The notes beneath the pieces were generated by a model. That model was given only the letters and a program-made list of their open reading frames with translations. It was not told where the DNA came from and made no database searches. A stretch of DNA of 64,000 nt, taken from contig ML978122.1 of the NCBI GenBank assembly GCA_010015805.1, forward strand, positions 2,018,453 through 2,082,452, read 5' to 3'. Source of the stretch: Rhizodiscina lignyota (taxonomy: Eukaryota). Numbering within the stretch: the stretch's first letter is position 1; each line of letters starts with the position of its first letter. Below are positions 18,984 through 52,722 of the stretch, in pieces. Made by a program: the position numbers and the translations under genes.

Positions 18984-21900
18984 TTATGATGTTTCAGGCT
19001 TCTTCCCCTTCCCTGAATCGCCCTCTTCGCTATCGTTTACCGAATCGTCCCCGTCACCGGGGACATCTCCGCCCATCTCCTCCATCTCCTTATCCTTCGC
19101 CCTCTCCCTTTCCCGGCCCCTCTCCTCCTCTCGACTCCGCCGTGTTTCGGCATCCATGATCTCCGGCTCGCCTTTGAAGGGACCGACGATAAAGTTGGGT
19201 GTCATCTCGACCGTCTGGCTGGGCGGGATACCCACGCCCAAGTGCAGTGGGTCTTGTAGTGGATCTGCAACGAGGACAGGGTCCTCGTGCCGCGTGTCGG
19301 GATGCACTTCGATGCCCGCCTGCGATTCGAGATCCGCCCTGTTGTTCGTTCGCGCGAATTTCATAGAGTCCGAGTCGTCGTGGCCGCGCTCTATGGGCGA
19401 CCAGCCCGCGATACTGCCGGCAACAATACCCGCCATTGCAGTTGCGGCGCCGAACGCGCTGTTTGAGCGTGATCGGCCGCGCTTGCGGGAGCGACTCTCG
19501 GGTGTCGGGGCGCTCGGTGTACCGCCGTGTTCCTGGCGATCTTCCTCGGTGGGAGTCTGAGGAAGGTCGTGCGAGCTTGAGAGGCGGGAGCCTGATCGGG
19601 AGCGGAGGAGTTCGCGAGGGTGAGTCATCTTCCACTTGAGATGAGTGATGCGGCCCCCGCGCATTCTACGGATGAAGGTGAGCTCGTCGCGGATCTCAAG
19701 CATGCCTGGGTTCCATTGGAACTGCTCGTTCTCATCTTCGAGAAGGAGACTTGGTGCAGCCTTGCGCTTGAAGGCCCGTGGGATGAGTCGTAGGACGAAG
19801 TCGTCAGGGACGAGGCGGATGATGACGCCAATGGGAATAGAGAGGGCGCCGAGGATGAGAGATATACCCCATTGTGCGCCGTTCAGACGGTCGACCGTAA
19901 GCGCCGCGCCGCCAATATAAATGATCATAACTTGGCCGCCAACCATGATGAGGTTGATGGCAATGAAGAAATAGTTGCGCTGAATCCCTTCAAAGATGTT
20001 GAACCGGTTGTCCAAGCGGCGGTTGTTAAGTTGATTGAAAATCTGCATCCACACAAAAGTGTTGAAGACAAGAGTATCGAGGTTTAGCCAGTTCTTGAAA
20101 GCCGCGTATTGAGGGTCGTGACGAATCATCGTCTTAGTCACACCATCTGGTGGCGCGTTGTACCCTAGGATCGAGGCACCTGCGAAATGAAGTACGAACG
20201 TGACAACGAGCTGATAAATGGCTTGCCCGATAATCATCTTCCACATTGTCAAGGTAATGAGTGGTGCAGATTTAGGGTCGGGCTTGCGGTCGAGCATGCT
20301 TCGAGTGGGAGGATCGGTAGCAAGTGCGAGTGCGGCAAAAGTGTCCATGATGAGGTTGACCCAGAGCAGCTGGACAGCTGTGAGCACGGAGCTTTGATCC
20401 GAGCTTGCAACCGCGGAGACAAAGGTGAGGGCCACGGCGGTGATGTTAACCGTGATTTGAAACTGCAAGAACTTCTTGACAGCGTCATTGACCGCACGAC
20501 CCCAAAGCAGCGCCTTAACGATAGACGAGAAGTTGTCGTCCATAAGAATGATGGCTGACGCTTCCTTTGCAACTTCAGTACCAGCGATACCCATGGAAAA
20601 GCCGACGTCTGCAGTCTTGAGCGCAGGGGCATCATTGGTTCCATCACCTGTAACAGCAACGGTCTCGCCGAGCTCCTTGAGCCTCTTGACCAGAACACGC
20701 TTGTCCTCTGGGCTCGATCGAGCAAGTACGCAAAGCTTTGGAATAGCCTGGTTCATTTCCCTCTTGCTGAGCTTTCGGAACTTCGGGCCTTCCATGACCA
20801 TGCCGCCTGGGACGAGGATGCCGCAATCCTGAGCGATTGCGCGGGCGGTCTCGACATTATCACCAGTAACCATGCGAACGAAGACACCAGCATGCTGGCA
20901 ATCTTCCACGGCTTCTCTAACCCCTGGTCGCAGTGGGTCTTGGATACCAACGACTCCGAGGAAGGTCATATCACGGAAGATGCTGTCAAAGTCTGCCTGG
21001 GTCGGGTCATCTTGCCACGTCTTGAATCCTTGAGGAGGCCACTGTTGATCAAAATCGCGGTAGAGGAATGCAATCGTTCGCAGCGAGCGCGAGGCATATG
21101 ACGAGATGACATGGCCAAGTAGTTCCCTCTGTTCATTGCTCATCTCAACAGCGTTGAGATCTCTTGTCGGGTCCACAATGATCTTCGCGGCGTGCGCGAG
21201 TAGGATTTCGGAAGCGCCTTTGACATACATCCTGTGCCTGCCGTCGTTGAGTTTGACGACAGCAGCCATACACTTCCTGCCAGAATCGAATGGCACAAAC
21301 TGGGGGATGTTCGCATTGGATCGCTCCACGTTCACGTCGCCCATGCCAAGGTATTCGCGAGCAAAGTTTAGCAACGCAGTCTCAGTCTTGGAGCCAATGA
21401 AAGCTGGCTTGCCGTCTTCCTCGCCCTCGAATGCGGTAGAGTTGACGACAATCTCCTGTTCAAAGAGCTCTCTGACTTCCTTGCCAAGTGATTCGGCAAA
21501 ACCTGACGCAGTTTCATCGGTGTCGACGACATCGTCTTCGGCGCCATCAGTCGCACCACGGGAGTGGATGTTGCCATTCGGTTGATTGGTCGGCTTGCCC
21601 TTATTTCCAAACTTTGCGCTTGTGCCCAAGACGCCGGCAACGACTGTCATCTTGTTCTGGGTCAAAGTGCCTGTCTTGTCAGAGCAAATTGTGGTGGCAT
21701 TTCCCATGGTTTCACAAGATCGCAGCAATCGCACCAAGTTGTTGTCCTTCAGCATTCGCGTGGTTGCGAAAGCGAGAGCCAGCGTAACTGCGAGAGGTAA
21801 TCCCTCAGGGACTGCGACGACGACAACTGTGATGGCCTGAATCAAGATGTTCAAGAAGTGCTGGCCTTTCTGAGCCGGTGAATCCGTGCTTCCCTTCAAG

Positions 21901-23513
21901 TTCACGAGGAACTCGATGAGCAGCACAATGAAGAGGAGTAGAGCAGCTGCACCACCCAGTTTCGCAATGTACTCCGCCAAGGTGTTGAGCTTCGATTGCA
22001 GGGGAGTGACCTCGTTCTCTTCTCGTAGGCTCATCATCGTCTTGCCGTAGCTGGAGTGGATACCGGTCGACGTAACAAGGAACGATCCAACGCCTTCTGA
22101 GACCTTCGCGCCAGAGAGAATGAAAGGATCCATTTTCTTCAAATCCATGTGCTTGTCGATTGCGTCGTAGACCTCGTCTGCGGGTGTCTTTCTCAGCAAG
22201 TCGGATTCTCCAGTCGCCGATGATTCGTCGCATTTAACACCATGCCCTTCGATGAAAACTCCATCCACTGGCACCATGTCTCCGGGTTCCAGAAGGACAA
22301 CATCGCCGACGAAAATATCATGGACGTTTATTTCCCTGGTCTTGCCGGACCGAATGACCTTGATCAACCTGTCGTCCTTTTTCTTGTTCAGCTTGACAAA
22401 TTGCCTCTCTTTCTGCCAATCGTTCAAAGCTCCGACCACGACGACGATCAATATGGCAACCATAATTGCAACACCTTCGACCCATTCCACGGGAGCCTCG
22501 CCGTCCTCATGTGTTTGACCAAATGTTTCGTAGAGACCCAACGCCAGTGATATTACAGCTGCAATGGTAAGTAATATTAAAACCTTGTCATTGTAGGCCA
22601 TCCACGCGAGCTTGAAGATACTCTTCGCTTTTCGTTCTGGTAACCGATTGTCGCTGAATACTCGTTTTCGGTCGGCGTAAGCCGCGTCTTTTTGTCTCCG
22701 GCTCCCTCTCGTCCCGGATGTTTCGCTTCGTTTCAAAGTTTGAGTTCTCGATGGATTGTGCGCAGCTCCTATTGCATCATCGAACGAGACGCCTCCATCT
22801 AACTCTTCCTCGTCCATACTCAGGCCTGCAGATCTGTCCGTCCTCAGCCCCATTTCGAGTCCCCTGAGTCCGCCTAACGCATGAAACGCAGCCAAGCTCT
22901 TTGGATTCAGCATCTTGCCCAACTGTCCCGGGGAATATGCGAATTTGTTATTCTCCACTTCAAAGTCCGCCTCTGTCCCAGGATCTGGTTTCAGTGCCTC
23001 ATCGTCACCAATGATTTCCTGCGCTTTCACTCCAGCGCCCTTCTGATGTTCCGACCCCGGTGATGGAGTCATTGCAATGGTGGTACTATCCGCAAATGAC
23101 GATACGCCCGATGCACTCGACTGCCCACCATCTGTGTCGAAGGAGTTATTTCTTGATCGCGTCCCGGGGACTTCGAGGAAGTGGTGTGTGCCTCGCGATG
23201 TCGGTGATGAAACGTTGTGTGGTGACTGTGGTCGATAGCTCTCGAAGGAAGGGGCATTTCGTAGCTCGACTGGTGATGCTTGTGACGGCGGTTGAGACGG
23301 TGGTAATGATGGCGCCGCTGTGGAGGATTCATCATCTCGGTCGTCATATTGAACGTGTGGTATGTTTTCTGATTGCCCCATGTCGGTCTGTTGGTTAACT
23401 GCAGATGTGTCGATGGTTATAGTAGGTGCTCTCGGTCTCCGTCCGGGGCCAGGCGATGGTGTATTTCGGCCTTCACCTCCCGGGGGACCTTTATTTGTTT
23501 CAAGAGACATCAT
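18984..23513 (-). CDS. PMC1: P-type IIB Ca2+-transporting ATPase (PMC1/PMCA type), intronless CDS
   Basis: 1509-aa ORF with TGES, VPEGLPLAVT, the phosphorylation motif DKTGTLT, KGASE, TGDN, GDGTNDAPAL and LWVNLIMDT. Confidence 0.95.
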   Translation of the reverse strand: MMSLETNKGPPGGEGRNTPSPGPGRRPRAPTITIDTSAVNQQTDMGQSENIPHVQYDDRDDESSTAAPSLPPSQPPSQASPVELRNAPSFESYRPQSPHNVSSPTSRGTHHFLEVPGTRSRNNSFDTDGGQSSASGVSSFADSTTIAMTPSPGSEHQKGAGVKAQEIIGDDEALKPDPGTEADFEVENNKFAYSPGQLGKMLNPKSLAAFHALGGLRGLEMGLRTDRSAGLSMDEEELDGGVSFDDAIGAAHNPSRTQTLKRSETSGTRGSRRQKDAAYADRKRVFSDNRLPERKAKSIFKLAWMAYNDKVLILLTIAAVISLALGLYETFGQTHEDGEAPVEWVEGVAIMVAILIVVVVGALNDWQKERQFVKLNKKKDDRLIKVIRSGKTREINVHDIFVGDVVLLEPGDMVPVDGVFIEGHGVKCDESSATGESDLLRKTPADEVYDAIDKHMDLKKMDPFILSGAKVSEGVGSFLVTSTGIHSSYGKTMMSLREENEVTPLQSKLNTLAEYIAKLGGAAALLLFIVLLIEFLVNLKGSTDSPAQKGQHFLNILIQAITVVVVAVPEGLPLAVTLALAFATTRMLKDNNLVRLLRSCETMGNATTICSDKTGTLTQNKMTVVAGVLGTSAKFGNKGKPTNQPNGNIHSRGATDGAEDDVVDTDETASGFAESLGKEVRELFEQEIVVNSTAFEGEEDGKPAFIGSKTETALLNFAREYLGMGDVNVERSNANIPQFVPFDSGRKCMAAVVKLNDGRHRMYVKGASEILLAHAAKIIVDPTRDLNAVEMSNEQRELLGHVISSYASRSLRTIAFLYRDFDQQWPPQGFKTWQDDPTQADFDSIFRDMTFLGVVGIQDPLRPGVREAVEDCQHAGVFVRMVTGDNVETARAIAQDCGILVPGGMVMEGPKFRKLSKREMNQAIPKLCVLARSSPEDKRVLVKRLKELGETVAVTGDGTNDAPALKTADVGFSMGIAGTEVAKEASAIILMDDNFSSIVKALLWGRAVNDAVKKFLQFQITVNITAVALTFVSAVASSDQSSVLTAVQLLWVNLIMDTFAALALATDPPTRSMLDRKPDPKSAPLITLTMWKMIIGQAIYQLVVTFVLHFAGASILGYNAPPDGVTKTMIRHDPQYAAFKNWLNLDTLVFNTFVWMQIFNQLNNRRLDNRFNIFEGIQRNYFFIAINLIMVGGQVMIIYIGGAALTVDRLNGAQWGISLILGALSIPIGVIIRLVPDDFVLRLIPRAFKRKAAPSLLLEDENEQFQWNPGMLEIRDELTFIRRMRGGRITHLKWKMTHPRELLRSRSGSRLSSSHDLPQTPTEEDRQEHGGTPSAPTPESRSRKRGRSRSNSAFGAATAMAGIVAGSIAGWSPIERGHDDSDSMKFARTNNRADLESQAGIEVHPDTRHEDPVLVADPLQDPLHLGVGIPPSQTVEMTPNFIVGPFKGEPEIMDAETRRSREEERGRERERAKDKEMEEMGGDVPGDGDDSVNDSEEGDSGKGKKPETS

Positions 23514-23566
23514 TGCAGGCTGCAGTAATGCGCCACAACCATCTGTCCTTTAAGATCCCTTGCAGT

Positions 23567-23941: not shown

Positions 23942-25809
23942 AGCAGAGTCGCGACTGGCGTGGTGGCCAAACCGGTCTTTCAGGGCCTATGGATTGCAAA
24001 TGCGGGCAGTATTAAAGCGGGAGAAGCGCTTACACGTCCTCGAGTGCCTAATGAGTCCCGCTCGAACGCTTCTATAGGCGACTGCTGGCGGTCGGGCAAC
24101 GCGACGGAGTTGGGGCGACAGAGGCAGTCTGAACTCCCATGCGGATAGCTACAACATGATCGACAACGGTCGTGATCTTCCGGAGATCAGGAGGAGACTT
24201 CCAAAAGGACTGGCAGGCGGCCAGGAGGAGCAATGGCAAGAGGCAAAGGGAATGAAGCCGGCAAGGAGCGTGGAGCGAGTGAAGTGAAAAGAAGCATCGT
24301 CAGAAGCCTCTTGCTGCAGGTGTACACGCTGCACCCCCGGCCAGTCCGTTTGGGCCAATTCGACGCACCCCTACACGCCGGAAGGCCTGTTAGCGTGTGC
24401 CAAGGCGTCGAAGGGGGCTGTGCAAACCGACAGCTCGTCAACGCCCAGCCCTCACTCCCTCCCAACCGCGCCCTCAGATGCGCCTCTCGCACTCTCCCAC
24501 GCGCCCGCCAGCCTGATCGAAGCCTAGCGGGCCATGATAAAAGCTGGCCAAGCCGTTGCAAGACTTCACGAAGCCGTTGCTCAAGACTCCACGCACTCTC
24601 ATGCCACACTGATGATTGAACGGCCTCACCAAGGCTCCCAGCCGCTCCGCTCCGCTCCTCCAAGGCGCTTGGCATGACAGTGAGCGTCATCGTCATCTTC
24701 TCGCGTGCTCTAGCTCCCAATGCTGCGTCGCAAAGAAAGCGTCGCGCCTCTCACGCGAAGAGACTCCTCGCCAGTGAGCCGCTCGCCCTCGTCTCTGCAA
24801 GCCCATCCTCCTCTCCTGGACCTGGGGCGCCTGACTACACCTTCCGCATGCGATTCGCCGCCCGATCTCTCCCACTTGCTTCCATTTCACGGAATGGCTC
24901 GGCATCCCTCGTCCTTCCTCACGCACCTCGCCCAGCAAACCGGCGTGTCGCCCGAATTGCCTCTGATTCTGATTGCTCGCATGTTTGTTTACAAGATCTG
25001 ACCCTGTCCAGCATACCAGCGTACCTGCTCGAAGATCCGGTGTTCTTGCCCCATCGCTTACTGCCAAAGCTCCTTCGCCTAGGATCTGCTCCTTACGCCC
25101 CTACTCTCCACGAGGCCGGCACGCATCTCCACCTAAGCAACTAAGCACCGGAGGGCGCAGCAGCGAAACGGATTTCGCTATCATTTCCTACGGATTGTCA
25201 ATCTCACATTCTAGATCTGTCAGGCGGCCGTCTGCATCTCTGTGGTTGGCCGCGGTCCCGCCGCCGAGAACGACCCGCGATCAATCTCTTTCTTGCACAG
25301 CCCCTTTTCGCGACAACCTCAACCTCCCACCGTCCCAGCGTTGAATTCCACTCGGCGGAACCTTGGCATCTCCTCGGCACAGAGGCAAACTTTATTGCTT
25401 CGGCATGTGTGAGCTGAGAGCCAAGGCCGTGAGGTGTGCTGTCACTGCGCGATTTTCCCAGTTGGCGTACCAAGGTCATGTGAAACCGTGAGTGGAGTTG
25501 GCAGAGCCCGCTTGCCACGACGCGGCATCTTCATTGGCGACTGCGCCCTCTCACGTTAACCGCCCGCGATAGCAAGACATGAAATGCTTTTGAACGCGCA
25601 AGTTGAGGCGGAGTTGGAGATCGCCTCCTCGTTCCCCTCAGATCGGCCAGACCAGGTATCTCTTTACGGTAATACCCCCCTGGCCAAGGAGACAAGATCT
25701 GTCGGTACGAAGTACAACATCGCTTACAGCTTTGCACACACTGGAAACCACTCCAAGATGCATTGAGAGTGATACTAGGAATCAATTGCAGTATAGGGCA
25801 ACGCCGTAT

Positions 25810-25843
25810 CAGGATACGACGAGCAGGATACGACGAGCAGGAT
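25810..25843. repeat. Short tandem repeat, 14-bp unit x ~2.4
   Basis: CAGGATACGACGAG CAGGATACGACGAG CAGGAT. Confidence 0.85.
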
Positions 25844-26658
25844 TCCGCCTTGTAATGACCGATTCAAACAGATCGAGAAACATATGTGGAGTCCATCGAA
25901 TCCGCCTTGAAACCTGAGGAAACAAACGAAAGCCACCAACCTTCTTTCATTTCCTCGACCCTTGACTGCGGAACATGATGTGGGGAGATTCCGTTACACA
26001 GCCTGCAGAGATTCTGCGGTGCGATATCTGACGTCCATCAATGGAAGTCGGCCCGTGATATATCCAATTGATATGCAAATTTGAACGAGACTTCGATCGT
26101 GTGGCGCATGAAATAACTTTCAAAATTATTCCCGTGGTCCACGGATCTGACGAGTTTCACGTCGGAGAATAATATACGAGTGCGATGAGAGCCTCGCAAG
26201 GCATAATGGAGGAATCAGTCCGAGATGCATCTACCAAATCCTCAGGCACCAATACCTCAACCATACCTTCAGTCCCCGGGGTTTGATAGGCCGATCTGGG
26301 AATAGAGAATAGTCAGATTGAAATTCTGCAAAGCGAATACAAATTTGAGCAGTGCTCGACTGCGATGCCTGACTCGTGACGTTACGGGTTAGGGTTAATG
26401 CCTCGTTCCTCTTCGATCCCAAGCTAATTCAGCGCTGCACGGAGAGATAACGTCTGACTGCACTTCATTGTTTCATCGAAGTAGTTGTATCGCAATCGCC
26501 TACACTGTACACGCCCTGATACCGCTGTATAAAACCCGGGGTAGTCTCGCAACAAGGGAATCAGTGGTACCAGTCAACGCTCCAAACAATAAAATGCAGT
26601 TACGCCGCTGGCAGCTCGCCAGCGCATCTCAAAAGAAACCCCCTCCAGTCTGACTCGT

Positions 26659-29204: not shown

Positions 29205-29905
29205 GTTGGGCAACCTGGAGCGGTGGGCCCCACGCGCTCAGGTTCCTCGCCAGGTACGGATCGATCGTCTGCGCAGGTGTTTCGATTACGTGCTATCGGA
29301 GGTTATGAGAGCGGTAGAATGAGGACGGAAAGCAGAATTGGCATGGACGGGCTTATTTGAAGTGGGATCAATCTGTTGAAGCTCTTGCATTAATGGCGGA
29401 GGGGCCTTGGCGGCGCTGATCGTCTCGGATCCCTGAAGCCTTTGACGTCGCTTCATCTTTCCGGGCTAACCTTCTTTCAACAACCACCACAAAGACTTTC
29501 TATTTGATCAGATGCTCCAGCGAATCACCGCCACAGTAACTATATTCTTCTTCCTCCCGTGTCTCTTTCAGTCTCTGTCTCCTTGAGCGGTTCTTGAGTC
29601 GACGTCAGAACACCTCTGGTCGGTCTCCCAACCACATCTGAACACATGACCTTCGTATTACCATTTGAGCTAAAATTCTATATTTCGTTGACCTATATTA
29701 CTTAATCTTTTCATGTGTTATACATAATCTTGTTCTGTGATATTAAACATTCATGGGACCGAGGCGGAACGGCTGCCTGGATCCCCAAGCTTTTTGTATT
29801 TAAATTGCTCAGGCCTCTGACGTCTGACCATATCCATCGCAACATCTTTTCATTGATGCCACAAGCCTCCCCCTGAAGAATTAAGCCAATACTTCAGGCA
29901 CGACA

Positions 29906-30475
29906 ATGCGTCAAAATCTTGTCACCCTGATTGCTCTCAGTGGCCTCGGAGTTGCCGCACCAGCCTTCAATGGTAAATGGGCCTGGACATACTACCACCT
30001 GTCGTTCCTCCTAACCCATTGCGCATATGCCATAGGTGGTGCGCCGGTATATGCACGCTCAGCTGAGGCTGTGCCAGGTTGGAAGCTTGGCCCAGTGACA
30101 GAGGGCTGGAGACGCGAAGCAGGATCGTGTTGGAAGCCCGACGTCGTCGCTGCATCTATTGGCAAACGCCAGGCGCCGTCTGATCGGAAACGGAGAGCTG
30201 CGTCAGGTTGGGAGCGTGAGGCCAATTCGGACCGGAAACGTGGATCGCCGTCGGATGAGAAGCGTGGACCAAATTCGGACTGGAAACGCGAGGCTGAATC
30301 AAGCTGGGAGCGTGAATCTAATTCAGGCTGGGAACGCGTAGCTACGTCGGGCTGGGAACGCGAGGCCAATTCAGACTGGGAACGTGGACCAACGTTGGAC
30401 GAGAAACGTGAACCAAATCCCGATTGGGAACCTGGAGCTGCATTGGACTGGCAGCGCCAAGTTACCTCGGACTGA
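29906..30475 (+). CDS. Secreted Kex2-processed repeat protein (KEP)-like peptide precursor, 168 aa after splicing
   Basis: Signal-like MRQNLVTLIALSGLGVAAP; 63-nt intron 29973-30035 (GTAAAT...CTAAC...TAG); twelve 8-aa repeats of type x-x-x-S-D/G-W-K/E-R. A TATA-like TATTTAAA lies ~110 bp upstream. Confidence 0.8.
   Translation: MRQNLVTLIALSGLGVAAPAFNGKWAWTYYHLSFLLTHCAYAIGGAPVYARSAEAVPGWKLGPVTEGWRREAGSCWKPDVVAASIGKRQAPSDRKRRAASGWEREANSDRKRGSPSDEKRGPNSDWKREAESSWERESNSGWERVATSGWEREANSDWERGPTLDEKREPNPDWEPGAALDWQRQVTSD
30170..30475 (+). repeat. Coding minisatellite, 24-bp unit x ~12.7
   Basis: Units such as GAGGCCAATTCGGACCGGAAACGT, GGACCAAATTCGGACTGGAAACGC and GAGGCCAATTCAGACTGGGAACGT in exact 24-nt register. 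Confidence 0.9.
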
Positions 30476-31708
30476 GGATGCGGACAAGTACCAGGCAACT
30501 GAAACGGAGTCAGACTACCAAAGATCCACTTAGGTTCTTCAGCTGTTGAGTTGTTCTCTGAGCCTTGGGGTTCTGAAGGGACATGATCCGCGTATTCACG
30601 TGGTTTCAACATTCGTTGCAGAAGCACTGAAGATCGAGTTGGCTGCGTCATGCTTTGCTGTTGAAGGTGTTTCTTCTCCGTCTGTCTTGGGCGGCAGGAT
30701 AACAATAAAGAGCTTGGTACGCCTGAGTTTTCTGCCTTGTTATCGTGCGTATCTCGTGTATCCAGACGAACATCGGGTATCTGCGACTTGGAGACGCGTG
30801 AGGTGAAGAGTTGCCGAAGACAGCTCGTGAATCTCATCCCCACTCGATGGCAAGGGACTCCATATCTCAGCTATCCATTTTATTTCATCCATACCTTGTA
30901 GTCAGACTTGAGTCTTCTTTCAACGACCGAGCATCCGTCTCACCTTCAAGCTTCCACGGAGGATATCAGTCCCATGAGAGGTTTTCTGTTTGCAAATTTT
31001 CCGTTTCCGCCAATTTGCTTGCCTTCCTCAATGTCGCTTGGAGGATTTTGAGGCGATTTATGCTGACAAAGATTGACCTTCCACGCCGACGTATAGGATG
31101 ATCGGCGTTAACACGTACTGGCCTTCAAAAACTGCGTACAATTGAGGAATTTCTTTCCGCAGGAGCATAAGAGGAAGCTTACTGCGTCTCTTCATCGTCT
31201 CCAAAATACCGTTAGCAGCCTGTTATTGAATTCTAGGCTCTGACTCCCCACGTGGTTCTACACGGAAAAGCTGATGTGGACTGGATTCTGCTCCCTTTTG
31301 TAATAATTTTACGTGTGAAGTAGATCGGAGCTAACTTTATCTGTGAAGACCGAGGCTCCCGAGATGTGGTCGTGCCTGAAAGATATATCCAAGCGGCATA
31401 AACAATGTGGCAAAGGAATGGCAACTTGCTGAGGTATGACATCTCGTGCGAAACCGCACAATGCCCACCGTCAACCCGAACGGCGATTCGGTAATTCTGA
31501 TAGGACAACCACTTTGGCGAAGCAAACCGGGATAATTGGCACCCGACTCGGAAGAAATTCATCGCGCAGTGCGAATGCTCTGCCGAAAACATTTAAACGA
31601 GCGTGCCGTGCTATTCGGGTAGTCAAAACGTCCAATTAGAGTACCGATCAGTTGCCGACGTCGAATCCCTTTACTCTTTTAAGATATCCAATCATCAAAC
31701 ATCAAACC

Positions 31709-32187: not shown

Positions 32188-32779
32188 ACCTCGGTGCTCA
32201 TTGGTGCAGACACTTGAACTCAAGGAGAAGAAAGATGATGAAGGAAGGAAACAAAGGTGCCATCACAATAACCAACGTAGTCAAGGTATGTTAAAGAGGA
32301 AGCAGTACAAATGGCGTTGAAGAGACAACGTCAAAGTTATTCGTCTTGAGCTGCTATCAGGAGATTGGTGATTGTTCCGCCAGTCCCTCAAGGCTTTTGC
32401 TATCCAATTTCGATGGATCATCTTGATCTTTAGGAGCTTTCGGCTTGTCATACAACTGCCATTTTGACCTAGACATTATAATTAAAAGACCTCGAACGGT
32501 GTATAGCCAAGTGAAGTTGATTGCTATTGCATATAACCACACCAGCCCTTGCAATAGCTGCGGGGAGATAACTTCTTGCCCAATCAATGCTCCACCGGAA
32601 CTGTACTTCCGAACCGTGTTTTCGCGGCAGTAGGGAGTCAAGCAAGCCTCTATATCAAATATATTCCTTCCTTGGCTCGACAAATCGCCGCTGACGCACG
32701 AGAAGGCCTAGCCAGTAGTTCGAATTTCGCAAGCAGGAATGGGAGTCTAGACTTCTTCTGAATATCGACTTGCCAAGCT

Positions 32780-34219
32780 ATGGGCTCCCCCATACTAAAT
32801 CCAAAAGACTTCAAAGTCGCAATCGTTGGTGGGGGAATTGGCGGTCTCACAACGGCATTGTGCTTGTCATACCACTGCCCTGACATCAACATCACAGTCT
32901 ATGAGCAGGCTCCCGTTTACAAAGAAATTGGCGCAGGGATCGGGATTGGAGTGAACGCAGCACGGATTCTGCATCGTATTAGAGTCGGTGACGATGCAAA
33001 CGCAATATCAGGAGACCGCAATGGCACGCACAGGAGCATGCGGAGGTTTGACAATGGTGAAGAGATCTGTCAGGTCGAGGCCATGGACGAACCGAAGGAA
33101 ACCAACGTTCGCCAATTGTCTGTACACCGAGCTGACTTTCTCGAGATTCTGCTGAAACATGTACGAGAACGAGGAATAGTAATACTACTAACGAATAAAA
33201 GGGCAGTGAGGATTGAGGTATGGAGATTCTTTTCCTTGAAATATAACGTCATATTTAGAGGAGAAGACTAAGGAAAAAACTTTACCAACTTGCAGGATGG
33301 CGGAAATGAAGTTCAGGTGCATTTCCAAGATGGAACAAGCGCAAAAGCCAATCTTGTGATTGGTGCCGATGGCATCCATTCGATCATTCGGTCACAGTTT
33401 GCGACAGATCCACCATGCTTTTCTGGAACGATAGCTTATCGTGGATTGTTACCACTCGATGCAATTGCACAATCCTGGCCCTTCCCGTCCTACTCTGTAT
33501 CATGGCTTGGGCGTGGGAAGCACTTCCTGACGTTTCCCATCTCAAAGAACAAAATCTTGAACGTTGTTGGATTCGTATCGAAGCCGGAGGAGGAGCTGGG
33601 GGACCTGAAAGAGAGTTGGACCAGCACGGCCGACCGGGGTGAGCTGGAGGCTGAATATGAGGGGTGGGATCCTTCGTTGCTAGCTGTAATTCGGAACATG
33701 GACCAGACTGTTGGAAAGTGGAGGATCAATGACCGGGACCTGCTGAAGCAATGGGTCTATCTCGATGGGAAAGCTGTTTTGCTTGGCGATGCAGCGCATG
33801 CTATGCTTCCACATCAAGGTTCTGGGGCTGGATATGCCATCGAAGACGCATATATTCTCGGCTTGGCCTTGAAGGACTTCTTTGCGGCAAATGCGGCTCC
33901 TCCATTGAATGAGCCGGGCTCGTCGGTGATGGTCTCGGCTCCCAGGCTTGGTAACTCCTTTCAAGATCGAAAGTCCTTGTCTACATGGATGCAGGTTTAC
34001 CAGCTCGTGCGTCTTCCTCGAGCCCAAAAGTCGCAGATTGCGTCAAGAGAATCTGGTAATCTCCGTGCCATGCAAGGGTCGGACTTCGAGGGCCTGAGCT
34101 ATGAGGAATGTCTGCCGGTTGTGAGAGAAAAACTGAAAGGGCGGATGAAATCTGTTTGGGGGGCTGATATTGGCGCTGACTACGAGGCGCTCGTGAAGAA
34201 GACTGGTCTTAGAGGTTAA
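32780..34219 (+). CDS. FAD-dependent monooxygenase, salicylate hydroxylase-like (group A)
   Basis: VAIVGGGIGGL, EIGAGIG, VHRADFL, VIGADGIHS and LLGDAAHAMLPHQGSGAGYAIEDA motifs. Intron 33218-33295. Confidence 0.92.
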
Positions 34220-34879: not shown

Positions 34880-36746
34880 ATGGGAACAGGGGAGCTAGAG
34901 CCCGATCCAACATCGGAGATCGCTGTTCAGAACGAGAAGGACATCACGGTACAGGAAGAACGAGATGGCAACGATAAGGCGACCGGATTGAAGCTGGATC
35001 CTCATGGATTCCCTTTACATCCACAACCTTCGTCGGATCCGAGGGGTATGGTCTCCTCGGCTTATCTGAACAGTTATTAGATCTAACGATTCTAGATCCA
35101 CTGAATTGGAATAAATGGTTCAAGCTCTGGGTCTTGTTTCAAGTTTCGTTACTATCATTCCTCAGCCCGTTTACTCAGGCTGTCATTGTATGTCTCGGCA
35201 TCACAAATCCTTCAAGCTGTCTCGTTGACATGAGACCAGAACGCTGCATATATCCCACTCTCAAAGGCCATGCACATCACCGTGCAACAAGCATCCTACT
35301 CACTCACTGTCGCCATTATCACCTCCGGAGTGGTCCCTTTGATCTGGCCAGCGATCTCAAATGTCTACGGCCGACGTCCCATATTCATTTTCGTTTCTAT
35401 CCTCGGAATCATTGGGCATGCTGCCTCCGGAGCCGCACCGAAGTGGGGAGGCATCCTTACCGCAAGAGCATTCATGGGCATTGGTACCAGTGCTGGTACA
35501 GGTATTGGCGGTGCTGTCGTGGCTGATATGTATTTCATGCATCAGCGCGGAAGGTGAGTACCAATGTTGTGCATGAGCAGCAGGGACAGTCTAACTTGTA
35601 CCCACAGATATATGGGATTTTACGTCTTCTTCCTTCAGAATGGGGCACATATCGCCGCAGTTGTTGGTGGCTATGCAGCAAAGACATTTGGATGGAGAGC
35701 GTGAGGAATTCTGGAGTCGGCATGTCTTACTCCCATACTTACTGATATGGATTAGGTGCTTTTGGATTCCAACAATCATCTGGGGTTGCAACTGGGTTGT
35801 CAACGTCTTCTGTCTCCCCGAAACGCTCTACCACAGAAACAACGCTACGGGCGAGTCGCTGCAGCCGCAGAACGAACCATGGATCAAGCGCTTTACTTTC
35901 AACAGCGCCGCCGTCGGCCGAGGCAAGCTGAGGCTGCGCGACTTCACGCATGTCTTCGAGATGCTGAGATATCCGAGCGTCTTCTTCCCAACACTGTACT
36001 ACGCCATTTCCTTCGGAGTTGGCACCGTGCTCTTTGCTGTAACTGGAGCGTCGGCATTCAGTAGCATCTACCATTACGATACCTCCCAGATTGGTTTGAT
36101 TATCGGACTACCGACGCTCATTGGCTCCTTGCTTGGCGAATTCTGCTCTGGACCGGTTAGTGATCGCATCCTGTATCTGTATACCAAACGGCACAATGGT
36201 GTGAGCAAGCCTGAGGCTCGGTTGCAGGCCATGTGGCCAGGATTCATCATTATGCCGGCTGGCGTGATCATCGAGGGTGTCTGCTTGCAGTACCACACGC
36301 ATTGGATGGGTCCAGCGATGGGCATGGCTCTGGGACTGTTTGGACTGCAGATTGTCAGCACGAATATATTTGCTTATGTGGCAGACGTGAGTACTCAAAA
36401 ATTCCCGGATTCCGACTTTGAAACAGAAGCTGATCAAATATGATGTAGTGCTATAAGCCTCAGTCCTCCGAGCTGTCCACTCTTCTCAACTTCGGCCGTC
36501 AGACATTCTCATTCACTCTCGGCTTCTACATGGTAAGCATTATTCGAAGCAAACAGCTAAGATCGCGCATGGCTAACGATTGCGGCAACGCAGATCCCAT
36601 TCGCGAAGGAGACTACTTATGGCGTCGCATGGAGCGTCATGGCACTCATCAACATGTCACTATTCGCAGGAATCATCTTATTGATGTTTAAGGGTGAGAA
36701 GTGGAGAGAACGATTGGGCCCACCGAACTTTGATCGAGATTTGTAG
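34880..36746 (+). CDS. MFS transporter (DHA1-like)
   Basis: PQPSSDPR/DPLNW, motif A-like SNVYGRRPIF, VADMYFMHQRG, LPETLY and KPEARL. Multi-exon; stop TAG at 36744-36746. Confidence 0.9.
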
Positions 36747-36833
36747 CCTTGGGGCGCATACGTATTTTGGTGGCAGGAATGTGATGGCCTCATTATTAAT
36801 CGGATTTGGGCATTCTTTTAATGATCACTGTGC

Positions 36834-39235
36834 TTAAGTCACCGGTGCCCGGCCTTTCACCTTTTGCACCAACTTCATAACATCCTCGCCCTTCACCTCC
36901 GAACCTTGATGAGACTGCTTTTTCTTGCTCTTCTTGTGCAGATCTGCCCCTACTCCACGTTCTTCTACAGCATCTGCCTTTCTCTTCCTCCGCTTCCTCC
37001 CCTCCTCCAATAGCGCCTTCATACCCTCCGTACCCTTGAATCTCGGATCGTTCGGATCAATCGCAAACTCATGGCTCTCAAACAATCGTACGAATCTCGG
37101 ATCATCAACCTGCATCTGGAAGCGATCACCATCCTCGCCCTTTCCGACGTCCTCATCAAGAGCGGCCGCTTTCTTTTGTTTCTTCTTTTTCTTCTTATCC
37201 TTCTCTGCCTTTGCGATCTCATTCATGTCGAAATGTTGTACGCCTTTACCTGTGCCATCTCGAGCATCATCGTCCGCCATAAGAAGCTCTAGTTCTGCGC
37301 GCTGTTTTGAGTTTGCCTTCTCTTCGGCCTCGCGCTCGCGCTTCAACCGCTCTTTCTCAGCTTTCTTGGCTTTCTTCGCAGCATTGCGGTTCGCGATGAC
37401 CGGGTCTTCGAAGAATGGATCGTTGAAAGGGTCATCCTCGTCGGCTGCTTCCTCTCCAGGGACTTCATTATTCTCATCGACTTCGAGGGCCTCCTCTATA
37501 GCTGTATCGCCTTGCGCTTCAGGCTTTGAAGCCTTGGATTTCTCTTTTCTCCTCGCTTTTCTTTCCTTCTCCTTGCGAATGTACTTCTCCATCGTAGTCT
37601 CTTCAGGCTCATTCACAAATACAGACTCTCTTGCTGGCCCGGCAGACAGCCCCGCCGAGAAAGTAATCTGCAGATTTCCAACTGGCTTGTCGTCCTCTTT
37701 TGGTCGTGACGGTTTTGATGGCGCATCACCCGCTAGCCCAAGCATTGCCCGTAACGCCGCGGCCTTATCCTTCTTGCTCTTGGGCTTCTCTGCATTGTTC
37801 AACTCTTCGTTGGTAATCCTGATACCAAACCTGTTTGCGGCTGCAGTTGCGTCCACTTCTTCCTGCTCTTCTTCGCCTTCGCTACCCTCGTCCGAGGAGT
37901 CGCTCGCGATGTAGGCCGCCAAATCATCATCACCAGGCCCATCGTCCCCCTTCCCTTTGCCCTTCTTTCCTCTCTTCGCACCAAATGCGCGCTTCTGGAT
38001 ATCTTTCCTCTCATGATCATCCTCATCCCACGTGAGGCGCACTTTGCTATGTTGCAGCGCGTCCGTCACAAACTCAGCCGGTCTATAACCCTCCGGAACC
38101 TTTTCGCACTCGTCTCTTGGCTTGTCTTCCTCAAACGACACATCGTCGGGTACAAAGCGCAGGTCAAAGAAGTTTGCAGATGATAGATATTCCCGGCCAT
38201 CCATGGCATCGTAGAGTGCCTTTCCGACTGAAGGAGAGGAGCAGGTGACCACAGCGTAGTAATATCGTAACCTATCAAGTTGATATCGGCGCAAGGCGGT
38301 GGAATCATATTCCTCCGAGTTGCTGTTTTGTAGTAGCTTTTCCTTGATTTTGTCCTCGTCGTCGGCATCCTCTGACGCGTCGGATTCATCGTCATCTTCT
38401 GCGGTAACATCTCGAGCAAGTACAGTCTTCCGTTTCGACTTTTGGAAGAGTTCGCGCGGTGGTCCTTCAATTTCCTCGCGCTGCATCCTTTCGCGTCCAA
38501 ACTCGCTGGGGTAGACGGTGACGTTGAGTATTCGTCCGTCCTGAGGCACAAAACTTGAAGCTACGGCCATCAGGTCTACAGCTCGTATGTTGTCCCAGTC
38601 CAAGTTCACTACTGCAAGCCGTGATGACACCTCACCCATTGGCACCTCCTTCTCTTCCACTCTGAGCCCCATCTCTTCTACCTCCTCTTCCTCAGAGTCG
38701 TCTTCACTGTCTGAACTACTTTCAGAACTTGACTCTTCTATATCTGACGCCTCTTCCTCTTCCTCCTCTCCATCACTCATGCCCGTGCCAACCCTTCTAA
38801 GCTCTTTTCTGACAACGTCATCATCCTCACCAAGCTCAAGCTCGTCCTGGCCGGCTTCTGGCTCATCGTCCTCGTCGCCTTCAGAATCATCTTCCTCATC
38901 GACAACTTCATACAACTTCCTCATATCCCTCTTACCCTTCCCCGCATCAATCTTCCGCCCATATTTGTCAACTTTCGCCTTCCGCACAAAGTCTTCATCA
39001 TCCAAGACCTTCGCGAATCTTGAATCGACCTTGACTTTGGTATGTGATCGTGAGGGGACGCGGAATCGAGGGTCTGTTTGAAAGTTGGAAAACCGTGGAT
39101 CGGCTGTAAATAACATTAGCGACAACTCTTCTCTATGCTAGTCGATTGGTGATTGAACTTACTGATCGTCGCCGAAGGTTGGGCGAATGGCTTTCCGCGC
39201 GATTTTGGCGCTTTCTGCTTCATATTCTGCGGCAT
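36834..39235 (-). CDS. ESF1: Pre-rRNA-processing protein ESF1
   Basis: Exon 1 (MPQNMKQK...) is followed by intron 39162-39104. Then TDPRFSNFQTDPRF, RLAVVNLDWDNIRAVDL, LRRYQLDRLRYYYAV, FFDLRFVPD and NUC153-like DDPRF...FAIDPNDPRFKGT. Confidence 0.95.
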
Positions 39236-40466: not shown

Positions 40467-41742
40467 CTAGAACGCTTCCCTGGGCTTGATCGGCCTCGGC
40501 TTCTGCACCGAGTCCATGAACGAGGTCAAGGACAGGAGACCAATCTTATCAGGCGTATCGTACGTGTTGTACTTGTTGCCGGTGAACTCGAAGAGGAAGT
40601 TCATGGGGAAGCCGATCTGGAAGCCGTATGCATCGTCGATCTGGCGCATGTCGTCGTCAGACAGCTCTAACGATAGCGCCTCAATGTTGCCCTTCAGATG
40701 CTCCACTTTGCGTCCGCCAACGATTGGGAAGATGTACGGTGACTTTTGCATAATATACGCCATTGCCTTTCAGGTGTTAGTTTCCCTGATCGTGGGTGTA
40801 TGTGGGGGGAAGGGTGATACATACCACACTGGTCATGATGGTGTTCTTCTCTTTCGCAATCTTCTCGAGAACCACGCTGACTTTTTCGGCTTCGGGGGGG
40901 ATGCGCCTCACCTTCCTGCCCTCGTCGCTCTTCCTCTGCTCTTCGGTCTTGAACGCTCCACCACCGAGTGCGCCCCAAGGCGCAATGCCCATACCCTCAT
41001 CCTGGCACATCGGCAAGATTTCACGCTCCATATCCCTGTCAGCTGCGCTCCAGCGTCCTTGGTAGACGCTGAACTGCCTCAATCCGTGATCTCTCGCATA
41101 CTGGTTGGCCTTTGACACCACCCACGCAGGAGTGTCCGACACACCGAGATAAAGCACCTTCCCAGAAGCAACGACGTGGTTGAGCGATTGCATCAGCTCG
41201 GGAATCGAAGTGGTGAAGTCCCACCAATGCACATAGAGCAGATCAATGTAGTCGGTCTGCAGCTTCTTGAGCGAGGCGGCCAGCGAGGTGTGCAGCGACT
41301 TGGAATGGTTGCCCGTGAAGTTGATCTGGTGCTTGATCGACCTATCACCGCCCTTGAAGCCAGTAGTGAACTTGGTCGCGATGACCATCTGGTCGCGCAC
41401 GCCGCGCTCCGCCAGCCACTCGCCGATCCACGTCTCGCTCTGCTCGTCCTGGTAGTTGTTCGAGGTGTCGATGAAGTTGCCGCCCATGTCGAAGAAGTAG
41501 TCGAGGATCTCAAACGCGGTCTTCTTGTCCATGTCGCCCATCCAGTCGACCCTGATTTGAGTGTGCTCGTTAGTTTCCTGGTTTTATGTGATAAGCTCGT
41601 GGATGGAGAATCCTCACCATTGGTTGCCAAAGTTCATCGCGCCCAGGCATAGCGGGCTAACGCGAACGCCAGCAGTGGGAGATAGGACGCGGTGGTAGCC
41701 AAGAATGCTCTTTGGCTTTTCTGGTGGGTCGCCGAATGCCAT
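40467..41742 (-). CDS. Aldo-keto reductase, aryl-alcohol dehydrogenase / norsolorinic acid reductase-like
   Basis: [54 protein letters not shown] and FPIVGGRK motifs. Two introns. Confidence 0.92.
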
Positions 41743-42315
41743 TGCTACGAAGTTATTTGCGTTGAGCTGATCGAAGAGTCGAAAGAACAGACTGATGAGC
41801 TAGAAAGGTTGAAGTGCTTGGAAGTCAATTGAGAGAAGTGCGATGTTGAATTGAAGAAGGCTGGCGTGCACAAAGAAATTTATAGCTTCGCGAGCTGTCG
41901 ATTTGGAAAGTTGGTGCGTGACGTAAACGAGCTGTGCTGCATTCTACGGAGTACTTTTGCCGCGTCAACAGTAGTGCTGCTCGACGGAGTTAAACACGCA
42001 GCTACTGGATATCGCCATATATTTCTCATCAAGCTCTCCCCTTGACCTCAAGCTCCCTTGTGTGGCGCTACAACTAGCTCCGTACGGATGATCCACACCA
42101 TTAAGCATACGGGACCCTCGAATGAGGTTCGAATCAAGACTTAACCTCATTGAGATGTCGTTAGTCGGAGAATCTTCACACCACATCATGTAATGGGCTT
42201 TAACCCCGTTAAGTTCCCGCAGCTTTTGTCCGTAGCGCATGAACTCCAACTGTCATGGACCCGGAATTCAAGACTTTGTGCTCCCATACGCTTGGAGTAC
42301 ATGTGACGATACGAC

Positions 42316-43172
42316 GTGAACATTGAGCTCTGGACAGGCACTATTGTAGACACCAAGTCCACAGCGTTTCGTCGTTGCAGCTGGGACGAAGTGGAAAAGG
42401 AATTATCATCGTCATGCGTAACTGCTCACATTGTGGGCAAAGTCATGTATTTGAAAGCTATACTGAAATTTTCAAGGATGCATCACCAGTGGATCGTGCT
42501 TCGAGTAGGAGTCGGCCTTCTCCAAATTCGCCAACTTGACCCATTTTACAACAGAGAAGCTCAGCGGAGCCATTTGTGCCACCACAACGAATGTAAAAAC
42601 CCAACTCACTATGAGTTTGCTACGCCTGCTTCCAATCAGTCGAAGACTATTTGCTGGACAGCTGCGAAAGACGCAAAGAGGAATGAGGAGCCCGTGCCAC
42701 CCTGCCGGAGGCACGAGTGACACGACGCTGCGTGTCTCATGCACGCCGCTCCGGAGGGCAATGAGATGATAAGTACCCAAACGAATGATAGGAAGAACGA
42801 CGTCGGGCTGACTTATCGCTGCTTTTGCTCTGCGCCTTGCAACAGCCGCGAGGAATTACTTGAACATCAAATGGGAGAACACGTTGGAGCATTCCCACCC
42901 GGACACATTTGCACCGATTGTGGCGGGAAGATGCCCAACGAATCAGAAATTCCCCTTCGCACACTCCGATAGATATCGGGTTTGCGAAAATCGTCGGTAA
43001 AAGACGGTCTAAGACGGTCTTTAGCGGAAAATGTTCGCACGTCTTGACGTTCAAAGAAACTCATGCGATCGACGGAGATAATACAAGGCCTATCGCAGGG
43101 ACTGCGGTTGGCTTGCACTATCTCGAAGCCACACGTGCCGATACCGCCTGCAGGTGCTTGTTGAGGCATTAA
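42316..43172 (+). pseudogene. Decayed His-Cys box (His-Me finger) endonuclease domain plus C2H2-like zinc fingers
   Basis: SHLCHHNECKNPTHYEFATPASNQSKTIC...PCRRHE*HDAACLM with an in-frame TGA at 42718-42720. The same frame continues CFCSAPCNSREELLEHQMGEH and CTDCGGKM, then frameshifts. No intact start; boundaries are approximate. Confidence 0.7.
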
Positions 43173-51041: not shown

Positions 51042-52539
51042 ATGACCGCACCGAACGAAAAAAAAACTACATGTCATCATCATTGGCTCTGGATGCGCCG
51101 GTCTTTTCGTAGCCCAAGGACTCAAAAAGGTACGAAGCCTGTCTCATTCTCTGCAGAAGCACCGGCTGAAATACACACTTTTTGTGGCCACAGAGGGGTA
51201 TATCCTACAGCATCCATGACAAGACGAATCCCGCCCATCGTCCCCGCGACTGGAGCATGACCATGTTCTGGTCTTTTCGATACTACCCGCAACTGCTACC
51301 CGATGACCTCCTGGCTCGGGCACACGAGGCACAAGTCAGACCATGGTATCGGGCCACGGAAACGGAGGAGATGGTGCTCAGGAATACAGAGACTGGCGAG
51401 GTTTTGAAGAAGGTGAACTCTCCATATGCGGTGAGGGTGCACAGGGCGGGCTTGAGAAAGCTGTTGCTGGATGGAATCGATGTTCAGGTACGGCGTAGAG
51501 CATGATGGCATCTTGAGCAGCTTAAATATCTAACCGACACAGTACAACCACGAACTCGTCGGTATCGAATACACTTCTAGTGGGGTCATTGCCCATTTCA
51601 GCGACGGCACATCCGAGGAGGGCAGCAACATCATTGGGGCCGATGGCGGACAGTCCTTTGTGCGTCGCATGTTGCTTGGGCCACGTGCCGAGCCAGAGAC
51701 CTTTCCCCAGTATGAGATGGCAAATCTGAGCGTGAGATACACGCACGAACAAGGCAAATACATTGCCGAAACCATGACACCACATGTGGACTATGGTGTT
51801 CATCCAAAGGGGATATTCTTCATCATGCTTTGTAAGACCGTCAGCTTAAACCTTGTGTCTCGATATCTAACTGCCTCTGGCCACGCAGACCGAAACGCCA
51901 TTGACAAGGACGACTACTCTATCTGGACGTTTCACTTTGTGATTACATTTCCCAAAGAACTCCCGGGGAAGCCATTCAGAGGCCAGAGCAACGCCAACCG
52001 TCTCAGTGTTCTCAGATCTCTGGCGGATAACTTTGCCGAGCCAAGGCGATCAGCCCTGAAATGGATGCCAGAAGATCAGGAAGTCCCAAATGATTCCATC
52101 AGGGTGTGGGTGCCAACTGAGTGGGACAACCATGAAGGTCGTATTACATTGGCAGGGGATGCAGCGCATGCGATATCTTTCCGTAAGGCCAACATCTCCC
52201 CTTTTCGGATGGACACTAACCATGCCACAAGACCGTGGACAGGGAATGAACAATGCAACGGTCGATTGCGCCCACTTCGTAACAGCCATGGACAAAGTCA
52301 ACGCTGGGGAAGAGACGATGGCGAACGCAGTGAGCGAATACGAGAAGGAGGTTATTAGTAGAGGCACCTACGAGTCATCCCTATCACGACAGCTCACCCT
52401 TACCATCCACGAGTGGGATCGCTTCCTCGACAGTCCAATTATGAAGTACGGGGGAAATCTTGCACGTGAGATCGAGAATTTCAATCCTGGAAAAGGTGAG
52501 GGCCATGCCCCGGCGGCTGTTGAAGTAGCCGCGAGATAA
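51042..52539 (+). pseudogene. FAD-dependent monooxygenase, frameshifted in an A9 run just after the start (or an assembly error)
   Basis: ATG ACC GCA CCG AAC G(A9) CTA CAT puts LHVIIIGSGCAGL out of frame by 1 nt. The remainder (RVHRAGLR, IIGADGGQS, TLAGDAAHAISF/HRGQGMN) is intact with canonical introns. Confidence 0.75.
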
Positions 52540-52722
52540 ATTGATTGCCTCGTCCTCGCAGTACATGCTCGCTGAGATTGCTGCAGCATGGCTGGTCGCA
52601 TTGTAGCTTAACTAGCTTGGATGCAACAGCCTTACTCTGCTGCGGCGTTCTGATTGCATTGGATCGATTCAGTCCCAAGGATGAAGACAGGTTCCACGAA
52701 GCTGTAGTTACTCTTAATGGTG

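Follow-up and report, generated by a model that had tools for sequence, protein, structure and literature searches.

A putative Kex2-processed Trp-repeat precursor encoded in a Dothideomycete-like genome

The stretch of Rhizodiscina lignyota DNA analysed here (64,000 nucleotides, hereafter the window) carries on its + strand a small repeat gene, located at 29906..30475, that is probably real though unconfirmed. We put at about 0.5 the probability that this gene is a lineage-restricted orphan of a Dothideomycete-like ascomycete, and that its product is secreted and disordered, is made up of Trp repeats and, as a stand-alone Kex2-processed repeat protein (KEP), is cut at seven dibasic sites into unequal peptides. 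KEPs are defined in Le Marquer et al. 2019 and Umemura 2020 by a signal peptide, tandem repeats and dibasic Kex2 sites. The sole unusual trait of the gene is a constrained replacement of Lys by Glu that is coupled to the presence of Trp in the same repeat unit. The source clade is indicated by the neighbouring Sec1/Munc18 exon, which is closest to those of Dothideomycetes such as Glonium, Cenococcum, Aulographum and Elsinoe (79 to 82% identity).

A probable small gene with a predicted intron

The ATG-to-stop open reading frame (ORF) comprises 189 codons when unspliced, with an in-frame TAA upstream at 29882 and an A at -3 of the ATG. An earlier sequence-only reading had given both the ORF and all twelve octapeptide units of its repeat array exactly as we find them. 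It was right on the bounds of the ORF but read through an intron that we predict directly 3' of the signal-peptide exon (29973..30035; Table 1), with canonical splice signals. The in-frame codon-usage log-odds of this intron are -0.20 bits per codon, compared with +0.14 to +0.22 in all three coding segments, and its GC content is 51% as opposed to 59% in the exons. As the intron length is a multiple of three, the frame is open whether spliced or unspliced; the spliced product of two exons has 168 residues.

Nine Pfam-confirmed exons of the window served as the reference for codon usage (0.12 to 0.31 bits per codon), and the + frame falls inside their range. When the repeat units are compared with each other, the ratio of non-synonymous to synonymous differences (pN/pS) is lowest of the six frames in the + ORF frame (0.43), and variation is highest at the third codon position (0.52, compared with 0.38 and 0.30 at the other two). 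The value of pS is 0.71, near saturation, which suggests that the unit copies are old; they are nonetheless still in frame without any indel. A pN/pS of 0.43 corresponds to net purifying selection among the units, leaving the earlier suggestion of a diversifying peptide family unsupported. Codon usage, the unit substitution pattern, the indel-free register and the signal-peptide-like N-terminus thus argue that the + strand probably holds a real gene. The region 29400..31100 is without any difference in an independent assembly of the sole public run containing the stretch (probably the window's own source), demonstrating that the array is not a mis-assembly.

Anatomy of the octapeptide array

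Twelve consecutive octapeptide units run in unbroken register from nucleotide 30170: QAPSDRKR, RAASGWER, EANSDRKR, GSPSDEKR, GPNSDWKR, EAESSWER, ESNSGWER, VATSGWER, EANSDWER, GPTLDEKR, EPNPDWEP and GAALDWQR. Ten of the twelve open with X-A or X-P, and the endings are KR (five), ER (five), QR (one) and EP (one). No two units are identical, a difference from alpha-factor that the sequence-only reading had rightly pointed out. At the nucleotide level their pairwise identity averages 60% and reaches at most 21 of 24, with no register shift. Tandem Repeats Finder reports a period of 24 (4.7 copies, 0% indels, score 107) and, as its best-scored period, one of 48 (4.1 copies, score 154). The latter fits the observation that units at lag 2 are more alike (15.8 of 24 identical) than those at lag 1 (13.7 of 24).

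Across the units, position 1 is Glu in five cases, Gly in four and Gln, Arg or Val in one each, and position 2 is Ala (seven), Pro (three) or Ser (two). Ser occupies position 4 in 9 of 12, while position 5 is Asp in eight units, Gly in three and Ser in one. Trp is found at position 6 in eight units, the remainder having Arg (two) or Glu (two). Position 7 is Glu (six), Lys (five) or Gln (one), followed by Arg at position 8 in 11 of 12 units, encoded by three synonymous codons. Four bases are invariant in 12 of 12 units: codons 2 and 7 both keep their second base, codon 6 its third and codon 8 its first. The repeat register and these invariant columns are far above chance.

The codons at position 7 belong to the NAR class only (Lys, Glu or Gln) in all twelve units. 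This limitation suggests that Glu at position 7 is a permitted state under constraint, as opposed to the outcome of random decay. Lys at this position is found in one of eight Trp units but in four of four non-Trp units (Fisher p = 0.01). Trp recurs every 8 residues across five consecutive units. Three more degenerate Trp units, with Trp spacings of 9 and 8, are located 5' of the array, such that almost the entire mature chain consists of repeat.

Predicted secretion and processing

Read by hand, the N-terminus is signal-peptide-like, with a basic n-region followed by a hydrophobic core of approximately 14 residues, and the -3/-1 rule fits after residues 17, 18 and 20. The same reading finds no further hydrophobic stretch in the product, and the lack of a hydrophobic C-terminal tail means that there is no glycosylphosphatidylinositol (GPI)-anchor signal. 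The chain is a strong polyampholyte (charged-residue fraction 0.37, net charge per residue -0.007, Trp 7.6%), with one Cys in the spliced product and none in the array. Disorder of the chain fits the AlphaFold2 single-sequence model (predicted local distance difference test score (pLDDT) 52, predicted template modelling score (pTM) 0.11, no secondary structure), single-sequence models being weak evidence. A GPI-anchored or PIR-type wall protein was rejected, as the product has no C-terminal hydrophobic tail and no Ser/Thr-rich region. A cationic Trp/Arg antimicrobial peptide precursor was likewise rejected, the net charge being close to zero and most units neutral or acidic.

KR occurs six times in the product and RR once. 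Immediately after these seven sites come E, Q, R, G, G, E and E; X-A or X-P directly follows five of the six KR sites, and E-A follows the RR site, corresponding to the Ste13 signature. Sites cut by Kex2 in vitro are enriched in acidic and small residues at P1' and P2' (PMC2515848). Together with the signal-peptide-like N-terminus and the tandem short units, these sites fit the Kex2/Kex1/Ste13 processing grammar, as the sequence-only reading had proposed. In the scheme we favour, the signal peptide would take the precursor into the endoplasmic reticulum, Kex2 would cut after every KR and after the RR in the late Golgi, Kex1 would trim the C-terminal basic residues, and a Ste13-type dipeptidyl aminopeptidase would take off the leading X-A/X-P dipeptides.

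Cutting in silico at the seven sites yields eight fragments of 26, 18, 8, 16, 8, 8, 40 and 21 residues including the basic pair, with predicted cores of 24, 16, 5, 13, 6, 6, 38 and 21 residues. The output would therefore be some eight linear peptides of heterogeneous make-up, their cores ranging from 5 to 38 residues. One of these would be a hexapeptide ending in S-D-W, like the basidiomycete XSDW and -AADW peptides, and one a 38-residue polyampholyte with four Trp. If expressed and cleaved in this manner, the peptides may have a role in signalling or biotic interaction. The library of C-terminal-Trp peptides envisaged by the sequence-only reading is not what these sites predict: only one of the eight Trp units of the array has KR (the others have ER in five cases, QR in one and EP in one), and two of the eight fragments end in Trp. 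An upstream unit, G-W followed by RR, also places Trp before a dibasic pair.

The rules of the two published KEP surveys can be set against these fragments. Le Marquer et al. 2019 take KR, RR or KK as sites, and Umemura 2020 takes KR, KK, RK or RR; ER is not counted in either description (PMC6339444 section 24; PMC7329392 section 13). Le Marquer et al. require no fewer than four fragments with a length of two residues or more after cutting at KR/RR (PMC6339444), where the repeat protein gives eight. Their similarity step asks for at least three mutually similar fragments (FIMO default threshold), the motif making up at least 15% of the protein (PMC6339444). The three 8-residue fragments are pairwise alike at 4 or 5 of 8 residues including KR, and at fewer without it, and the outcome hinges on whether KR stays in the fragments. 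The Umemura survey looks for at least three tandem repeats of at least 8 residues each between Kex2 sites, none above 100 residues (PMC7329392). Single units here are exactly 8 residues long including KR, with cores of 5 to 6 residues, and the 13-, 16- and 38-residue pieces are not mutual repeats.

Several observations weigh against the reading we favour. Because KR is sparse and the canonical fragments are unequal, the gene might fail both the similarity step of Le Marquer et al. and the '>= 8 aa' rule of Umemura. Within a KEP unit it is usually the KR pair that is kept best, and here it is present in only five of the twelve units and absent from seven of the eight Trp units. The canonical fragments are not copies of one peptide. 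The signal-peptide-like character of the N-terminus is a judgement made by hand only. Among public sequencing runs, a single one contains the stretch; it is a DNA run, with no RNA run among them. Furthermore, no homologue that would show conservation of the gene was found in any collection searched.

Searches for related sequences

A word-indexed search of 5.8 billion clusters, confined to near lengths, gave no match with either the unspliced ORF (E <= 0.01) or the exon-2 product (E <= 10). HMMER against 1.84 billion representatives returned five matches at E <= 0.001, all of them unrelated repeat proteins of 196 to 1640 residues that were matched due to low-complexity repeats. One of the five, P0002 (659 residues), consists of about ten near-identical units of approximately 63 residues, each after a K/R-R-S-P-x-P-D-W-E motif. 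It resembles a multi-copy peptide precursor of another organism and matched the query solely via P-D-W-E words. The best score in the ESM Atlas was 0.77, under the lead threshold, and none of 83 pattern matches in the Joint Genome Institute (JGI) metagenome contigs was confirmed by tblastn. There were no matches among PDB sequences at E <= 1, no Pfam families in the repeat protein, and no paralogue within the window by tblastn and motif scan. Array motifs such as SDWKR and SGWER were not found in the supplement text of PMC6339444 and PMC7329392, a weak negative as that text is probably without the sequence tables.

The neighbouring Sec1 gene also has no identical entry in the protein collection, its best match being 82%. 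This suggests that the genome itself is absent from the collection, and the missing self-match of the repeat gene is therefore uninformative. Short disordered repeats diverge fast, and the nearest of the genomes sampled is a distant one, so that the lack of matches shows only that no close relative has been sampled or annotated. Orphan KEPs are frequent, with 2560 of 7878 standing alone in the Umemura survey (PMC7329392).

Comparison with known peptide precursors

The sequence-only reading had taken the gene for an undescribed system. However, XSDW, -AADW and ...PSW peptides are already in print for Basidiomycota (PMC6339444, PMC9769878), and since the grammar has been published the gene is a new example as opposed to a new system. 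A repeated XSDW KEP motif is reported as conserved in Basidiomycota by Le Marquer et al. 2019 (PMC6339444 section 10), and Vogt et al. 2022 found SGTGEASAADW, MSGVAADW, SGVAADW and LSGVAADW in mushroom fruiting bodies by liquid chromatography-tandem mass spectrometry (PMC9769878). The latter paper also describes QYKAPSW-type peptides with Ste13 trimming after Pichia expression, many basidiomycete KEPs with Trp-ending cores (sections 6 and 8) and, in its supplement, precursors with units of G-S-P-D-W plus RR and of ...A-P-D-W plus KR plus E-P (PMC9769878). Lentinula edodes KEP 2599, Pleurotus KEP 1091723 and Coprinopsis KEP 490115 served as our examples of this DW type (PMC9769878).

The repeat protein has in common with the DW-type KEPs a (here putative) signal peptide and short tandem units in a small, unstructured, Cys-poor chain. 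The unit grammar is also common to both, with one or more X-A/X-P dipeptides, small or polar residues, D-W or S-W and a basic pair, and one unit here (S-D-W plus KR, then E-A) fits it exactly. However, the DW-type KEPs repeat one near-identical core with KR/RR after every Trp, whereas the units here all differ. D-W or S-W directly before KR/RR, the mark of every core in the DW type, is seen in one of the eight array Trp units. The DW-type examples are from Agaricomycetes, in contrast to the Dothideomycete-like origin of the repeat gene. The likeness is one of unit grammar and may reflect either common descent or convergence; database searches gave no statistically supported homology.

In the case of Candida albicans Ece1p, seven KR sites are cut by Kex2 and the non-identical peptides are Kex1-trimmed (PMC5784256; PMC6339444 section 17). 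The repeat protein would likewise be a secreted precursor yielding non-identical, KR-bounded peptides from degenerate repeats. Ece1p peptides, however, greatly exceed in length the cores of 5 to 6 residues predicted here, the hydrophobic candidalysin having 31 residues and integrating into host membranes. In contrast to those of Ece1p, the units of the repeat protein are 8 residues long, hydrophilic and Trp-periodic, and there is no sequence similarity between the two proteins.

A bolder proposal, which we consider improbable, sees in the xSDW/xSGW units the ascomycete version of the XSDW/-AADW peptides known from basidiomycetes, reflecting a Dikarya-wide Trp-ended signal whose precursor has here been retuned to multi-Trp oligomers. 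If so, a Trp-terminated peptide signal and its Kex2/Kex1/Ste13 maturation would be common to Dikarya, with a receptor yet to be found. The limitation of position 7 to K/E/Q and the Trp-Glu coupling (p = 0.01) would then switch off most dibasic sites, and the release of multi-Trp oligomers plus a few monomers from one precursor would amount to built-in tuning of peptide valency.

Among the molecules that fungi secrete, KEP peptides form a large class that is for the most part uncharacterised, and very few of them have been physically detected. Were a Dothideomycete to have a DW-type precursor, a kind of peptide reported to date from Basidiomycota would also occur in Ascomycota, and the predicted KR-bounded peptides would provide definite masses for detection. 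The replacement of Lys by Glu in Trp units also offers a natural experiment on whether selection keeps the dibasic sites or the Trp periodicity. None of six Coprinopsis KEP knock-outs had a phenotype in axenic growth (PMC9769878). On present evidence the gene adds one to the thousands of orphan KEP-like genes, and its weight is modest.

Alternative explanations

The alternative that survives best, although we regard it as unlikely, is that the protein is secreted intact or clipped only once or twice. It would then be a disordered Trp/Arg 'sticker' polyampholyte with the KR pairs as part of its charge pattern, with a possible role as an effector, in the extracellular matrix or adhesion, or in binding glycans or surfaces. 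The K/E/Q-only position 7 and the Arg at position 8 look like constraint on charge and periodicity and not on a dibasic site. The Trp periodicity over five consecutive units, the disordered model and the net charge near zero also agree with such a chain, and some proteins with high-scoring KR sites do escape Kex2 (PMC2515848). Against this, an exposed KR in a disordered chain passing through the Golgi should be a good Kex2 substrate, with approximately two thirds of predicted substrates cut in vitro (PMC2515848). Furthermore, the protein has no Ser/Thr-rich stretch, GPI signal, Cys framework or known wall or carbohydrate-binding domain (0 Pfam families).

It is rather improbable that the + ORF is not a functional gene, and instead represents a 24-nucleotide minisatellite open frame, a dead gene or the shadow of an ATG ORF on the - strand (29992..30837). 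This would agree with the lack of transcript evidence, of a homologue and of a self-match in protein collections. The antisense ORF (281 residues) is the longer of the two, reaching 360 nucleotides past the repeat gene, and encodes a Ser/Arg-rich repeat product. Its pN/pS of 0.64 is the second lowest of the six frames, and it has wobble positions in common with the + frame. However, it has a higher pN/pS than the + frame and a lower codon score in all three coding segments (in exon 1 the gap is merely 0.005 bits per codon), and scores +0.04 bits per codon outside the overlap. The antisense product lacks a signal peptide, and the one Pfam match it gives is a sub-threshold repeat artefact (Fibrinogen_BP, 24 bits vs a cut-off of 50). 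On codon usage and pN/pS, the antisense ORF behaves as a shadow frame of the + gene. A neutral minisatellite at approximately 40% divergence would be expected to show indels, and the missing self-match carries no information when the Sec1 neighbour also lacks an identical entry.

Release of every unit has little probability in our view. Here, Kex2 would cut at KR, and either Kex2 or a monobasic-specific protease would cut after the Arg of ER/QR, yielding about a dozen Trp peptides of 4 to 8 residues. The presence of Arg at position 8 in 11 of 12 units would suit this, and in Pichia, three Coprinopsis KEPs gave products cut after a single Arg (PMC9769878 section 6). Both KEP surveys nevertheless accept dibasic pairs only, neither taking ER/QR as a Kex2 site, and confirmed DW-type KEPs repeat one core while no two units here are identical. 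An acidic P2 residue (Glu) reportedly makes a poor substrate in the Kex2 enzymology of Bevan et al. 1998. Kex1 trims C-terminal basic residues (PMC5784256), so that ER-cut products would finish in W-E and not in W. Where the sequence-only reading had left open both single-unit Trp peptides and longer multimers where ER resists Kex2, it is the multimers that agree better with our analysis.

Signal peptide, KR and X-A/X-P grammar are also found in ascomycete alpha-factor-type precursors (MFalpha1 and the Dothideomycete subgroups), and a signal peptide with KR-flanked tandem cores in the ustiloxin/phomopsin (dikaritin) precursors; the sequence-only reading had invoked both. Alpha-pheromone precursors, however, contain identical or near-identical cores of 9 to 24 residues, whereas the units here all differ. 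Dothideomycete alpha-pheromones are described as carrying two conserved Cys or a PYG[L/M]P[I/V]G (PYGxPxG) motif, and neither is present in the spliced product. Ustiloxin and phomopsin cores have the common motif EDYXI and lie beside ustYa/Yb genes (PMC6339444), and dikaritin precursors need DUF3328/UstYa neighbours, on average 3.09 genes away where present (PMC7329392). In contrast, the repeat protein has no Tyr-containing EDYXI core, and Pfam identified no DUF3328/UstYa, tyrosinase, cytochrome P450 (P450) or methyltransferase domain in the scanned ORFs of the 64-kb window (24, 117 and 62 translated ORF references; ORFs of at least 70 residues at 12 to 43 kb and at least 95 residues elsewhere). 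This argues that the locus is not a dikaritin cluster.

A flavin adenine dinucleotide (FAD)-dependent monooxygenase and a major facilitator superfamily (MFS) transporter do lie 2.3 to 5 kb downstream of the repeat gene. The monooxygenase opens directly on a GxGxxG dinucleotide-binding motif with no signal peptide, suggesting that it is cytosolic and should not meet a peptide of the secretory pathway. Peptide modification by this enzyme was rejected on that basis. Despite the signal peptide, KR-flanked repeats, Ste13-type dipeptides and these two neighbours, a modified cyclic RiPP (ribosomally synthesised and post-translationally modified peptide) of the dikaritin/ustiloxin type or an alpha-type mating pheromone precursor is thus very improbable and largely refuted.

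Genomic surroundings

The neighbours of the repeat gene are ordinary genes. Their coordinates are given in Table 1, alongside those of the features of the gene itself and of more distant genes of the window.

Table 1 Features of the repeat gene and of the surrounding window.
Feature	Position	Strand	Details
TATA-like element TATTTAAA	29797..29804	+	about 100 nucleotides 5' of the ATG; pattern match only, putative function
Exon 1, start codon and signal-peptide-like N-terminus	29906..29972	+	codon-usage log-odds +0.22 bits per codon
Predicted phase-1 intron, 63 nucleotides	29973..30035	+	GTAAAT donor; CTAAC branch site 20 nucleotides before TAG acceptor
Exon 2 start, three degenerate Trp units and spacer	30036..30169	+	RR site 30110..30115; first KR site 30164..30169
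Array of 12 x 24 nucleotides (8 residues)	30170..30457	+	translation; Tandem Repeats Finder
KR sites inside the array	30188..30193, 30236..30241, 30260..30265, 30284..30289, 30404..30409	+	translation
C-terminal tail of five residues and TGA stop	30458..30475	+	sequence
AATAAA, possible polyadenylation signal	30704..30709	+	229 nucleotides past the stop; pattern match only
P-type ATPase	18984..23549	-	
Sec1	about 26.6 to 29.0 kb	-	divergent from the repeat gene
FAD-dependent monooxygenase	32762..34219	+	
MFS transporter	about 35.2 to 36.4 kb	+	
ESF1	36834..39137	-	
Aldo-keto reductase	40777..41583	-	
Second FAD_binding_3 monooxygenase	51534..52355		
Zn2Cys6 / fungal-specific transcription factor	53590..55151	-	
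Weak SnoaL-like match	56053..56556	-	24.5 bits, under the Pfam cut-off of 27
SET/TPR protein	60984..63029		inside the possible metabolic group
Alpha/beta hydrolase	63208..63999		

Further along the window, an ORF at 42307..42717 (+) matches Pfam PF05551, the zinc-binding loop of His-Me finger homing endonucleases (E = 3.2e-8). It is flanked by the aldo-keto reductase and a PAP2 gene, and is unexpected in a fungal nuclear neighbourhood. The region 51534..63999 may hold a small metabolic gene group, made up of the second monooxygenase, the transcription factor, the weak SnoaL-like match and the alpha/beta hydrolase of Table 1. The GC-richest stretch of the window is located at 24000..26000 (GC 0.574, GC skew -0.11), and overlapping ORFs of 120 to 190 residues occur on both strands at 24176..25344, none with a Pfam match. 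Strong strand asymmetry is observed at 36001..38000, over ESF1 (AT skew -0.24, GC skew -0.15), and probably stems from the long acidic and basic low-complexity coding of that gene.

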